From Saccostrea echinata (taxonomy: Eukaryota): a stretch of 64,000 nucleotides of DNA. The position numbers and the translations under genes are program-made. A model generated the notes under the pieces. That model ran no database searches. It had not been told where the DNA came from and saw only the letters and a program-made list of their open reading frames with translations. This document shows positions 2,097-64,000 of the stretch, one piece after another (position 1 is the stretch's first letter; each line of letters starts with the position of its first letter). Location of the stretch: NCBI RefSeq assembly GCF_033153115.1, contig NW_026889753.1:7936001-8000000 (forward strand), written 5' to 3'.

Positions 2097-5000
2097 ACAG
2101 ACTCGGGCACCTCCTACTATCAGGTAAGTAATCACTAGTCTGTAATTAGTGGTTTGATTAAGAAGTAAGTAAGTAAACAATGTAAGTAAGAGAGTAACAG
2201 TCAAATGTAAATATAGTTTCCCAGGAGCCCGTTTTGATAGAGGCGACTCCACCCTTTGACCATTCCTTTTTATATGGCTGTTTATTGCACTGGTAACCTT
2301 TAAACAGGTCCAGCATTCAAAAGTGCATGTTGTTAATGATGCATATCTTTCTCCACACTAAAATCAACTTTTAAGCAGGAAACATTGCAAGTTATATTAA
2401 GAATAATTTCATGTCCTTGGATTTTGAAGTATATTTTATTAAGTATATGCTTCAAAAGATTCTCATGTTGATACAGTTTTGACCATAAAACCCATTGAAG
2501 TCTCATATGCTCTTTGCTAAAGTTGGTATACAATTTTGTTTTGTTTTGTTTTTTTATTTTAATACTTCAATTAACATGACACACAATTACATAACCTATC
2601 AAATAGTAACCAAATAAGTATTCAATTATAGATGAGTCAAATAGATTTGGGGCAAGGCCTAAATCTTGAGTCACATGCTACTAAGAAAGTGCAACTTTTG
2701 CATTGCAGGTTGAATATTATCAGATAAAGGTAAAAGTGACAGTTGGGTAATCGGAGAAGTCTCTTCAAGATCATTGTGTATACAGTGTTGTTGACAGATT
2801 TTTAACCTCTATTTGATAACGTTAAACTAACGATAAACAACCTTACAATTACTACCGAGTATGACTGTTTATTGTAGAGAAAAATATTGTACAGAAATTT
2901 ATTGATAATATCAATGATACATTGGGGGTTTTTTTGTTTTGTTTAAGATTTAATATCACTTATAATTTTCTGTGCAATACAGAATGAGGAAGCAGAAAAC
3001 ACAAAAAAATAATGCAGATAAGATAAGAAAACTAAAGTTGATTTGAGTAACATTATACTCATGTCTTCATTTTAAACATACTATAAAGAACTGTTTGTTG
3101 AACTATTTACATTGTGACAAGGAAGTGGCATAATCAGATGAAGTATTCTAATGTTTATAGGACACTGTCAGATACATGAGAGTTTTTAATCCCCAGTATT
3201 ATACAATAATTTTGCAAAAATAATATTCAATTATATTTACACATAAACATGATAATGTTAGAGAGCAGGAAAAATTACATGATAGAAGTAAATACATTGT
3301 AAATATGTTACCAATTAAATTTTCTATAATATTTCCTTGATGTTACTGTGTACATATGTGAATACATGTATTTATTATAAAAGCCCATACTTATACAAAC
3401 AAGAAAAGGTTGATGATTCAAATTCCAAGATACTTATTTTTAGTGTGACGTTTGATGATGTTGTTTCTTTATTTATTTATTTTTTTTTTTTGGTTTTGTT
3501 TTTTTATTTGTTTTCTTTTCTTTTCTTTTTTCTGTTTTTTTTTTTTTTAATCTTTAGGAATTCAGGTTTTTGCATACATAAAACACTATACAATAATCAT
3601 GGAATTCCTGCACATTTAATATTACATGAATTCATAGGAAAAACTTAAAATGTGAATTCATTTCCATGATGCCCACAATCCTCTGTAGGATTTACAATGT
3701 AGAGAAGTTGTTACAGTGAGAAAATTCAGATACTAGAATGTTTCTGTACATGAATAAAGCTTATGGAATAAACTTCATGCATAAATTTCTACATTTTCAG
3801 TCTAAGCCTAATTCAAATTCTCTGTAATTGATTTTGTCATGTTAATACATGTGCCTTGCTAAAGTCAGACTTCTCAGAATCCCTGAATTATGTTGAACAT
3901 TGAGGATAGAAAATGGCTGAATAATGAATAATCAGATATAAATAAGGACAAATTCCAATGCTAGTCCGGTGAACTGTTGTCAGTATTACATTCTACTTCT
4001 AGCTACCATAGATTTAGCCTAATATATGACATTGAACCTGTGAAGATTTGGGGTTTGGGGGTAAAATCACATTGATGGTGTACTTGGGAGAACAGATTTT
4101 TGTAGAATTTAAAGTAGGCTTTAAATTATCAGGGGGTCAAAGTGTTAAATGAAGATAAATTTCTATTATTCCATTGCATCACAAATTACACAATGTGTTC
4201 ACATATTTGACATATAAATTTTGAATTTAAATGCTTTCATATATGTTTTCATTTTGATAATTCTAAGTTGAGTAATTATATTTTTACATTTTGGTTACAC
4301 AGGGAGGTGCCATGGTCAACTCCTACACAGAAATTGGGAAAAGATTTGGGTTTGATCCAAACTTAACCGAAAATGATCTACAACAAAGACTCGATGAAAT
4401 GAGAGAGCATCTGAAAAAGGAGATAAGAAAAGAAATGAAGATCAAAGAGGGGGCAGAGAAATTAAGGGAAGTGACAACGGACAAGAAAAGTATGTCAGAT
4501 GTTCAGAGTATCGTGAAGAAGTCCAATAACAAGCTAAAGGAACTCCAGAATGATCTCCAGGAAATTAATGCCTATCTGCTAGTGTCCAATAGTACAAGTG
4601 TTCATGATGCATTGTCAGGTAATCTCAATATGGAGAGCTCGAGAGTTCAGTTTTATTCATTGAATACAAAAGTTGAGCCACAAGAACATACCTGTAAAGG
4701 TGGGAAGGGGTAAACATAAGAGAACAGATAGGAAATTTCACAAATTTGGAAATAACAAGAACTGTGCAATTTGTGGTTGTAAATTTTCTTGTTAAAGATT
4801 GTTCGCATTAGGCCTAGATAAAATATGTTTCCGATTTCAGGCTGAAAAAAAATTAGGTAGGTAGGTAGGCATTTTTTTTTTAAATTCTGCTTGACTTCTT
4901 AAAACAAGGCATAAAGATAACAATGATGACAAAAGCATTTTAAAAAAAGATTAGGGTCGGCATTATGAATAAGGGTCAGTCGGGAAAGTGAAAACAAACA

Positions 5001-8000
5001 TATCTTTTTTCTAGGCCTTACAGGAAGATTCTATGTTGTTTGATATTTACATTGAACATGTAGCATAAATCATATAAGTAAAGTGAACCACAGATAGAAT
5101 TTCATAAAATGATACATGTTCATTGATGTAGATCACAGAAGTTAGTTTGTTATTTCCCAAAATCGTGTATTTTTGACCAGTGGGATGCCATTTACATTTT
5201 TTTTTTTTGAATAAGATGTTGAGATTGCATTTGTGTGTTCATTGTTAAAATTTTAAATTCTTTTATCTTATATATTTGTACAAACTAGATGACGCTAAAA
5301 CAAATGAAAACTACTTATAGGTCCTTGAAATGTTTACCGCATCCCTATAAGTGTTTTAGATATTCTACTTCCAGTTTTTACTGCTACTTGAACTACTTAA
5401 AATCGCCGCGTGTTCACCTACCACTAGGAACATAAAACACCTGTAAATAGTTTTTCTGAATCTTACCTCTTGTCAACAACAAAAATGAATGGCTTATCTA
5501 TATGAGGTACACCTATTGTATCTGTCAGTCTGGCCTGTATTTATTGATTAGCTCAGAACTTTGGATCATTGCTAAGTCTCGGTATTGATGGAGCTGTCAT
5601 CTTCCTCTATATGTATTTGACTTTAATTGTGTATAAGGAACAACTTTCTTCCTGTTTGTGACATTAAGAAAATTAAATCCCAATAGACGTGATAGATGTA
5701 CAATTCTTTTTGAGACTCTTAGAGGAAAATACAGTGATACCGAATAGGAACATCTACTTTTTCTCATAAAATGCAAGTGTCAGAAGGCTAAAATGTTCTT
5801 CACTAAAAGACCCATCACACTGTAGATAATATTATACTGATCCTAGAACCTGTCAATATATATGTCTAATTAAAATGTATTTGTTCCTTCTCTGTGAATT
5901 ATTGTGATGTATATATGTAGAATCTTCCATGGTTTGTGGTAGGGTATGGTCATTATCCAACAAGTTCCATGTTTTCTATCCCTGAGCCTTTGCAAAGAGA
6001 TGGAAAACACACATTGAGTTGGATAACTAATGGCAGATTCTTTGTACCATTATTTTACACTTAGCTATAACATGTTTTACACTGTTTTCGTATGTGATTC
6101 CATTTGAATTCATCACTTTACGGAAAAACAATTGTGAAAACCACTGTTGATATAAAAACAATATCACCTGAGCTATATCCAGTGTATAAATGAGTAATCA
6201 TGTGATGACTGATGTTTACAGATGACAGGGATAAGGATGCTGTTGACATGGACCCCGTTTCTCAGAGACTTACCTCTCTAGAAAAGCAGTATGAGATTGA
6301 GAACAAGGTAAATTTGTTTTGATACGTACAGATACTGACAGATCAACAAGATTTGCATTTGACTTGGATTATTTCTAAAAAGAATAAACTTTCAAAAAGT
6401 GATAAATTCTTACTTTTAGCTAATTTTTGCCCTGAAAAATAATAATCTATTCATTATAAAAACTAATTCACATAATACAGTTGGTGATTTCTGAATTTAA
6501 GTATCTTATGCGATTGGAATCCTCAAAACTCGAATGTACATGTATCTAGAAAGAAATTCAGTTAAAAATTGAGACTTAAGTACCTATGACCAATATTTTC
6601 TGCAGGTAAAACAGGGAGCTGAGAACATGATAAACATGTACAGTAGTGGAAATTTCCGCGACAAGAAGATGCTTGCTGAGGCCCAGCAGATGTTGTCGGA
6701 TGCCAAAACAAAGATGGAAATCATCAGAATGCAGATGCTTAAAGTCACTCAGGATGCTACAAATATGGATGATGGTAAAATATTAAATTTTTCTTTTTTG
6801 GGTAAAATAAGAAAATTAGTGCTCTTATGAAAACTTTAAACAGATTCAATCACATTCTGTACATACTCTACATGTGCGTTTCTTAGCATATCAAAATTTA
6901 TTGAAAACACAGGTCAGGGATTATGTGGTACAGTAATGTATTAACATCAGAACTACTTTATAATATACTGAAAATAAATACAAGGATTTCACCAAATGTG
7001 CCAAGGTAGGAATCCTCTTGAAACAAATACATACAAAGAGTTATCAAAAAGTTTGTGGGCTGATGTGATAAAATTAATACTATATAGGATGTGCTTACAA
7101 AATTTAAAAGGAAGGGAAAAAAAAAACAAAAAAAAGTTCAAGAAGTGTTGAAAATTTTAGCCTGATATGTTGAAAATTTGCCAATTTATCCTTAATTACA
7201 AAGAATAGTACATGATCACCCGGCGCTTGCCGTTTTGTTTTATGAGGTTTGAAAACCTCATATCTTCTTGATGTCCACTCCTTCTGCCTCAATACACTTT
7301 TCTTGACGCTATCTTCTAGTATTAAAATACTGATTGAAACCCATCTTGTTTATATGACTTTAAAATTTCATGAATAGCTGATTTCACAACATATTCTAAA
7401 TGGAGCTATATTTAAGATAAAGATCTTCAGTTGACTTTAGCTGCCTTATACACTCATTGGAGTTCAATTTCTACTGCACGTGAGCAACGTTACTTTTCGA
7501 CCTGACTGACTTTGGACACCCTGACCGCAAATTTGCGTTAAAAATATCTCTCCTCTCTTTGAAACTTTTGTGCCGTTCATCAGATTTTGCCCTTTTCCAC
7601 TGCCTGTTCTTATATTTCTAAAATCGATGTGAGTTTTCTTTCAAAAGTGGAACTATAGATTGAGGCAGAAAGAACCCCCCCCCCCCCCCTTTCCAGCATC
7701 GTTTTTTTGAACCACTTAAGTTTTTTGTACTGAATTTATGATAAGATCTTACTAAACTGAAAAATGAGGTAAAACTTGTAAATTTTATAGCACAATTATG
7801 TCACATTACACTAATGAATTAAAATGATTATTGGATGACAAATGCTCTTATCTGAGGATTTGTTTCCTTTAGACTCAATAAAATGTCGTATTTTGAGGTT
7901 GCGCCGCATGGTCATACCATTGCTTACAGAAACATTTACAATTTATTCAAAGTTACACCATGTATCTTATAGTTTATTCTGTATTCAAAAAAATGATGTT

Positions 8001-63264: not shown

Positions 63265-64000
63265 TTACTCATTGGCAACCTTTGCTTCTCAGGTTTTAGA
63301 GTATAGACATGCATGACTGTATTTCTCTTGCTGCTGTGCTGGCCCCTTGCTAACTTTCTTGATATCTTTAGTTAGTACATGTATATGCTTGACGCAACAT
63401 TAAGAATGTGATATTGGATGATTTCTGTCTACAATTAATTCACCCCTCCAAGTTTCAGGACAATGGCAAAAGGAAGGGAATGTATGGACTATTGAAAATG
63501 AAATTTTTAATAAGGAAATATTTGTAGTTGTAAAAATGATGATTTAGTTTGACTTTGAGTCCAATCCACAAGCATCTGTAATTTTTTTTTATAAATTCAA
63601 ATTTAATAAATATATTCTCTTATAACAATTTTTTGTATGTATGAGAAACAATTCTGTAAAAGAATGAAAGTCCCCCCCCCCCCAAGTTCATTTGAAGAAG
63701 ATAAACAAGCTTAAAAACTATGAACACGATGAATTTAAAAATCATATATTTGAATATAATTTCTTCTGGACCAGGAAAAATCATACACAGTGTTTATACA
63801 TAGTAGGAGTCCATCATTGATATACTTGTAAACATGTACTGGCAAGTACAGTGTAGTTATAAATGTTAAGATATGCTCTATTGAATTCATTGAAATTTTC
63901 AGGCTTTTGCTCGATCCTTTTCTACCAATTATGAAGCTCTTGGAAGAAATAAAGCAAAATACAATGAAAGACATTCCAGGGAAAAACTCGAAAATTTTCT

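Follow-up and report, generated by a model that had tools for sequence, protein, structure and literature searches.

Transposases of the Tc1/mariner type place one of their strand cuts two to three bases within the element (PMC2170065), and repair by end-joining then produces a footprint flanked by the two copies of TA (PMC2874221, PMC8151067). For Tc1 of Caenorhabditis elegans, this footprint is taCATGta (Eide and Anderson 1988, as cited in PMC3520976). Footprints of 0-4 bp are described for Passer, a member of the pogo superfamily (PMC9976928), and empty sites have been reported for Emigrant/Lemi1 (PMC1636448). The word TACATGTA is also known as promoter motif-1 of Phytophthora, where a footprint origin was dismissed on account of abundance and conservation, and Irx binding was favoured (PMC3520976). 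In this work, TACATGTA is analysed in a stretch of 64,000 nucleotides of the oyster Saccostrea echinata (contig NW_026889753.1, positions 7,936,001 to 8,000,000), hereafter called the window, and in the genome to which it belongs. Most copies of TACATGTA are taken to be six-base germline excision footprints of TA-duplicating, CA...TG-ended elements of the Tc1/mariner/pogo group, two bases being kept per element end. We put the probability of this reading at roughly 0.85.

The window contains 32 exact copies of TACATGTA and three of TACCGGTA (10413, 35672 and 51172), all of them where an earlier reading of the DNA, the original prediction, had placed them. Its rough estimate was two to three TACATGTA expected by chance; Markov models give 2.4 (order 0), 2.5 (order 2), 3.7 (order 3) and 5.4 (order 4). 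Composition, which the prediction had named (as 6/7-mer frequencies) as a possible full explanation, fails at low orders to account for the word. Orders 5 and 6 yield 12.8 and 25.8, and these values are circular because 39 of the 60 TACATG and 32 of the 39 TACATGT in the window belong to TACATGTA itself. Trinucleotide-walk shuffles of the window (n = 100) contain 2.3 copies on average and seven at most, and by order-3 z-score TACATGTA is the top non-homopolymer 8-mer of the window. The excess is genome-wide and not local to the window. In the whole genome (923 Mb), TACATGTA occurs 311,761 times against about 35,000 expected, an approximately ninefold excess corresponding to one copy per 3 kb. 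With 0.50 copies per kb against 0.34 genome-wide (p = 0.02), the window is mildly above average.

Related words were counted in a genome sample of 132 stretches of 10 kb, located at round coordinates on larger contigs (1.32 Mb). The ratio of observed to expected copies is 9.7 for TACATGTA, 6.1 for TACCGGTA, 4.4 for TACTAGTA, 3.0 for TAGGCCTA (18 loci) and 2.5 for TAGTACTA. When CATG is framed by a repeated dinucleotide (XY-CATG-XY), TA reaches 9.7x, 14 other frames lie between 0.6x and 1.5x, and CG reaches 4.5x on 14 counts. In the same sample, little excess is seen for half scars (1.14x) or three-base scars (1.3 to 1.4x), and TA-CA(G/A)TG-TA forms reach 2.6 to 3.1x. For TACCGGTA, the three copies in the window compare with 0.2-0.6 expected (Poisson p 0.002-0.03), and the 18,069 copies in the genome are roughly fourfold more than the sample's order-2 rate would give. 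The reversed words were rejected as controls, as ATGTACAT (104,634 copies) overlaps TACATGTA itself, and ATGGCCAT (13,812 copies against 18,069 of TACCGGTA) lacks the depleted CpG; Markov expectations were therefore used. Also raised in the sample are TACAATGTA/TACATTGTA (3.1x) and TACAGTGTA/TACACTGTA (2.6x), which may represent further scar classes together with TAGGCCTA.

The origin of the words becomes apparent when they are compared with paralogous repeat copies. In the sample and the window together (1.38 Mb), 517 sites of TACATGTA were considered, and 40 of these have paralogs anchored on both flanks. At 21 of the 40, the paralogs carry two bases instead of the word, namely TA in 15 cases and another dinucleotide in six. 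The other 19 comprise six sites at which the word is shared, six that are shorter by another amount, five that are longer and two of the same length with different letters. Thirteen unrelated TA-N4-TA control words gave two-base empties at only 1 of 128 sites (Fisher p 9e-15 against TACATGTA), and the one-mismatch neighbours of TACATGTA at 3 of 69. TACCGGTA and TACTAGTA behave alike but less strongly: for TACCGGTA, TA was found in paralogs at 3 of 12 testable sites, and for TACTAGTA the comparison gave 3 of 6. At about half of the testable sites, the words are thus net insertions of 6 bp with a duplicated TA. In 11 of the 15 TA cases, judged by eye, the flanks are unable to template CATG. The best-documented site, at 21552, is plain TA in 26 of 29 fetched paralogs; three show other small indels and none shows the word. 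Within the window, the copy at 47.5 kb is plain TA, and the copy at 19.3 kb is likewise 6 bp shorter. Furthermore, three gains of TACATGTA within 4.3 kb distinguish the members of a duplicated pair that are about 8% apart. Conservation of the word at homologous sites, which the original prediction had regarded as an argument for a factor-binding motif, was not observed, as paralogs do not keep TACATGTA.

An all-against-all indel census gave the same picture on small numbers: all three polarised 6-bp insertions are TACATGTA, in a census too strict for power. Among 280 unpolarised 6-bp events, 22 contained the word, with repeat pairs counted many times. In the same material, eight 4-bp insertions were polarised, and three of them consist of a rotated CATG and lie outside TA sites (L046:3111, L045:3560 and L007:2617). 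Among 12 of 69 indel rows listed from spliced RNA contigs (four runs, one sample), no allele was found at any TACATGTA.

The prediction had further expected that homologous sites would occur as TA alone, as the word, or as TA-element-TA, and these three states were found on paralogous repeat copies. The repeat concerned is abundant, measures about 165 bp per unit and contains two TAs close together. Its empty copies number about 10,000, as extrapolated from 15 in 1.32 Mb, and 336 lengthened copies were retrieved (control: 49). In the first 100 of the 336, inspected by eye, 20 are lengthened by 6 bp: 11 carry the exact word, five a one-mismatch form, one a two-mismatch form and three an unrelated insertion. 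The 11 exact words are divided between the first TA (five) and the second TA (six). Overall, the word occupies the first TA in 24 copies, and placing it on a 74-unit tree takes 13 changes, of which strong branches force at least six. CA-ended elements fill this TA in L254 and in 6 of 36 junctions (three pogo-like, three CAGGGTG-ended), giving a ratio of words to CA-ended junctions of 24 to 6, or 4 to 1. The remaining junction matches are 27 repeat variants, two decayed CG-ended elements and one unclassified case. The second TA is filled by Tc1 in L113. The same TAs are therefore found empty, filled and scarred across paralogous copies, the evidence at the first TA being partly ambiguous with tandem duplication. 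A copy with TA-CAG-TA in L096 was not counted as a further trio, as a five-base tandem duplication may explain it. The CAGGGTG-ended family, which is unclassified, entered the same TA of the unit three times (L324, L327 and L338).

TAs also appear to be re-used. Eleven of 466 matches to a loose Tc1-end pattern abut TACATGTA, against 0.4% of TAs (p 6e-6); many of the 466 are chance matches, since the control gives 416. Double words number 6,645 compared with about 1,300 if copies were independent. In L131, a Tc1 copy lies between two TACATGTA, so that the empty site would be a double word, and in L122 the word stands on one side.

Candidate donors reside in the genome, which holds at least 150 matches each to DDE_3 and DDE_1. 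Thirty DDE_3 loci include three multi-copy Tc1 families of 1.35 kb with CAG ends and TA flanks, one of which has copies 98-99% alike with intact frames of 343 amino acids (aa). Thirty DDE_1 loci include TA-flanked pogo elements with CAGT and CCGT ends, and CC-ended pogo elements with TA flanks are found in L291 and L292. CT-ended TA-flanked elements are present as well. The inserted bases match the terminal bases of such resident TA-duplicating elements and not the flank, and the interior of the word is constant across unrelated flanks. The TA-flanked CAGT...ACTG elements that the prediction had noticed in the window do exist, at three places, and one lies inside a further element:

38269..39796, outer TA-flanked element CTGTAA...TTACAG, host to the next element; its CT-ended type could leave TACTAGTA as a donor
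38369..39676, young non-autonomous element of pogo type, CAGTGG...CCACTG, 1308 bp long and flanked by TA at either end; the word at 39677 begins with the right-hand TA
51191..52056, non-autonomous element of pogo type, CAGTGG...CCACTG, TA-flanked, 82-83% like the DDE_1 loci L285, L287 and L290 over 384 bp
57818..57993, short TA-flanked element CAGTAA...TCACTG, 176 bp

In the family of the element at 38369-39676, all 46 of 46 ends are TA-flanked. Forty scored copies of its end, from 424 candidates, are 98-100% alike, and the left end is 78-85% like the DDE_1 loci L272 and L275-L277. At 38269-39796, within an HMMR-like intron, up to three events (the outer element, the pogo-type element and TACATGTA) are stacked within 1.5 kb.

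The flanks of the words resemble insertion sites. In the window, a pyrimidine stands at +1 in 50 of 64 flanks and T at +3 in 41 of 64 (p ~2e-5 and ~4e-6), and in the sample T at +3 has a frequency of 0.52 against a background of 0.37. At resident element ends, this value is 0.81 for Tc1 and 0.59-0.63 for pogo. T at +3 and low A at +1 are common to words and element ends, which points to a shared target-site preference and does not identify a family. The flank profile of the words correlates with that of Tc1 at r 0.77 and with those of pogo at 0.50-0.54; the log-likelihood gain on scar flanks is 83 for Tc1 (43 ends) and 78 and 62 for two pogo sets (37 and 46 ends), with a mismatch to Tc1 in the G at +1. 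Assignment to one donor family by flank profile failed. The Tc1/Tc3 type named in the prediction is plausible as a donor, and pogo-type and CAGGGTG-ended elements are equally so. Its suggestion that TACCGGTA is the equivalent scar of CC...GG-ended families agrees with the 3 of 12 paralog sites and the CC-ended pogo elements, and is less strongly supported than the case of TACATGTA.

Based on these observations, a four-step route to the words is proposed. An element inserts at TA and duplicates it, as seen for the resident families. According to published Tc1/mariner chemistry, the transposase would later cleave one strand exactly at the element boundary and the other two bases further in, so that each flank keeps CA. 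End-joining that fills both overhangs would produce TA-CA-TG-TA, and in the same manner TACCGGTA and TACTAGTA would arise from CC- and CT-ended families. Finally, the scar would be fixed, decay neutrally and have its TAs hit again; the decay, the depletion in coding sequence and the adjacency of words and element-end matches are observed.

Several observations weigh against this reading. Only 40 of the 517 sites were testable, some of them reciprocal pairs counted twice, and 19 of the 40 are other than clean two-base empties. Of the 21 empties, six have a dinucleotide other than TA (three of these in several paralogs), and slippage of an existing unit could make four of the 15 TA cases. The three-state evidence is paralogous throughout and consists of separate events, with no single locus seen both with the element and with the scar. 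The flank profiles single out no donor, and the scars lack the G at +1 of Tc1 sites. CG-ended TA-flanked elements are common (23 pattern matches), yet TACGCGTA occurs 0 times against 3.4 expected, and no excess is seen for TATGCGTA/TACGCATA, the forms it would take by CpG decay. CGAGGG-ended TA-flanked elements are common in the sample (L071, L093, L076, L333 and L335), and some of their ends have decayed to CAAGGG or TGAGGG. Moreover, the words far outnumber recognisable CA-ended elements, 1.38 Mb holding about 520 words and 19 candidate pairs of ends (approximately 25 to 1), although de novo inverted-repeat scans are noisy and this element count is rough. The same disproportion, together with the uniformity of a product whose half and three-base forms are barely raised, would suit a hit-and-run transposase or integrase that writes CATG-TA at TA while no element becomes fixed there, for example when integration aborts or when the element is excised again at once within one cell lineage. 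Filled elements at the very TAs that bear the word in paralogs, and the ratio of only 24 to 6 at the first TA of the repeat unit, make this improbable.

The word might also be made by mutation templated on its flank (slippage or template switching) or by CpG decay of TACGCGTA. Wherever the flank already holds a rotation of CATGTA, copying six adjacent bases in tandem yields TACATGTA as well, as in 15 of the 24 first-TA copies, which have G upstream; short tandem duplications are common at this TA, and the 6,645 double words could be slippage. The other nine first-TA words and the six second-TA words are not explicable as six-base tandem duplications, and a flank template is lacking at 11 of the 15 TA empties and at site 21552. 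CpG decay would predict TATGCATA equally, and the counts are 63 against 494; the density of TACATGTA is unrelated to CpG depletion (CpG observed/expected rho -0.02, 528 bins; second test rho 0.01), and no confinement to CpG-poor DNA or to gene bodies is apparent. As a main source, this explanation is contradicted by the data and very improbable. Equally hard to sustain is a selected transcription-factor site, gained by substitution and conserved, for an Irx-type homeodomain or Myb-type protein. TACATGTA has been cited as the preferred Irx site (PMC3520976), and its binding by PsMyb37 is reported in Phytophthora sojae (PMC11134190). The oyster words originated by 6-bp insertion and not by substitution (2 of 40 sites of the same length but different), and are shared with paralogs at only six of 40 sites, all within one recent duplicate pair. 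They lie in copies of unrelated repeats, with insertion-site-like flanks and a transition-biased decay of neutral type. Some scars may nevertheless have been used later as binding sites. Excision footprints remain the preferred explanation of the words.

If the words are footprints, their later fate can be followed. Neighbours of TACATGTA that differ by a transition number 553 against 336 expected, and those that differ by a transversion 854 against 734; around three control words in the sample, no comparable one-mismatch excess was found. An order-2 model implies a mean decay of about 9%, by which scars would be perhaps twice as many as exact copies. In long open frames, two TACATGTA were found against 12-15 expected, although a 6-bp insertion does not shift the reading frame; this depletion is probably due to selection against elements inserted there. 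The claim that the scars feed intron growth is true, and the effect is small: 192 bp of the window (0.3%) and about 1.7 Mb genome-wide (0.2%, exact copies).

The individual sites in the window are the following:

3363..16222, ten TACATGTA in introns of the PKN2-like gene (3363, 6537, 9473, 10419, 10914, 11424, 11770, 12506, 13455, 16215), from counts and mapped exons
8454..8461, TACTAGTA, third word of the same class, absent from the original prediction and assigned at class level
10413..10426, stacked words, the last TA of TACCGGTA (10413) being common to TACATGTA (10419); likely two scars at one TA
18756..18763, TACATGTA in a repeat copy; at this place the paralogs have no word and fall short by about 7 bp, which differs from a clean 6-bp insertion
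20863..20870, TACATGTA downstream of PKN, with no paralog
21552..21559, TACATGTA in a dispersed repeat, the best-documented scar, a derived 6-bp insertion at TA by paralog comparison
31504..46743, 14 TACATGTA in the HMMR-like region (31504, 33145, 37099, 37510, 38021, 38052, 39677, 42138, 42302, 42906, 44027, 44269, 46106, 46736)
35672..35679, TACCGGTA, likely scar of a CC...GG-ended element, from the class test and not at site level
51172..51179, TACCGGTA, separated by 9 bp from the left-hand TA of the 51191..52056 element, probable scar on a class-level basis
53144..63383, five TACATGTA around the CENPJ-like gene (53144, 53215, 58802, 60592, 63376), none in its 4.1-kb exon (53571-57683)

By Pfam, the genes of the window encode a PKN2-like kinase, an LSG1-like GTPase, an HMMR-like and a CENPJ-like protein; the last three labels are readings of the predicted domains. 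The best match of the PKN protein (97%) is named Saccostrea cucullata. According to the prediction, no word lies in a coding exon. This holds for the ten words in PKN introns and three past the last PKN exon, all exons of this gene being mapped. It also holds for six words of the HMMR-like region (42138 to 46106), which lie within introns marked by GT..AG joints of spliced RNA contigs. The other 13 are placed only outside three long coding exons.

Further features of the region were noted. On the minus strand, 23738-25633 is a frame of 631 aa with an MMR_HSR1 domain, read as the LSG1-like GTPase; its coding region is intronless among intron-rich genes, and it is possibly a retrocopy. Between 34000 and 39500, the depth of RNA contigs on intronic repeats exceeds that on neighbouring exons, probably owing to transcribed copies elsewhere. 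Three stretches (19.5-19.9, 29.7-30.6 and 48.2-50.5 kb) are made up of repeated units of about 150-170 bp, which are diverged, arrayed in both orientations and very abundant genome-wide. They may resemble Helitron-linked oyster satellite units. Elsewhere in the genome, a near-identical duplicated pair (L127/L129) has a Tc1 copy adjoining a transposase fragment whose translation reads as piggyBac-like.

Since elements leave, cut-and-paste transposition is underestimated when only the surviving copies are counted. If the words are footprints, they would count past excisions directly and be datable by decay. They would also provide markers that are polarised and nearly neutral, with the limitation that one TA can be hit more than once. 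In such genomes, the top match of motif discovery can be a transposon scar and not a regulatory site. That the four-base form prevails would be informative on germline end-joining in molluscs. Genome and intron size are little affected. A broader synthesis can be offered tentatively, with the odds somewhat against it as a whole. About 0.3-0.6 million fixed germline jump-in/jump-out events would form a countable fossil record, produced by one stereotyped repair outcome that keeps both two-base overhangs. Scars would draw new insertions, and families would leave specific words (CATG, CCGG and CTAG). The TACATGTA of other invertebrate and oomycete genomes, now read as a factor motif, would share this origin, some Irx- or Myb-bound sites having begun as scars.

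No report of TACATGTA as a genome-wide scar was found among the papers listed by literature searches (in one case, 40 of 425 hits), whose coverage excluded older and subscription journals. The footprint mechanism is known, and its scale here is unusual; added here are the genome count, the controlled paralog test, the candidate donors and the three states at homologous TAs. Phytophthora motif-1 is the same word and is also extremely abundant in non-coding DNA. There it is treated as a factor-binding site (PMC3520976), whereas the abundance in the oyster is accompanied by direct insertion evidence. With the general Tc1/mariner mechanism (PMC2170065, PMC2874221 and PMC8151067), the oyster words share the TA target duplication and would share the retention of element-end bases and repair by the host. 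The same sources give a three-base CAG footprint for Sleeping Beauty, whereas TA-CAG/CTG-TA reaches only 1.3x of expectation in the oyster and the four-base form is dominant. Members of the pogo superfamily can leave up to four terminal bases, and CAGT- and CCGT-ended TA-flanked pogo elements are present in the oyster. The closest described system is the Tc1 footprint of C. elegans, which consists of the identical eight letters, that is, the duplicated TA and two bases of each CA...TG end. There, as far as the cited account goes, footprints are rare, stem from single excisions and derive from Tc1. In the oyster, by contrast, pogo-type and CAGGGTG-ended donors are equally plausible, and about 276,000 excess exact copies are fixed in one genome.

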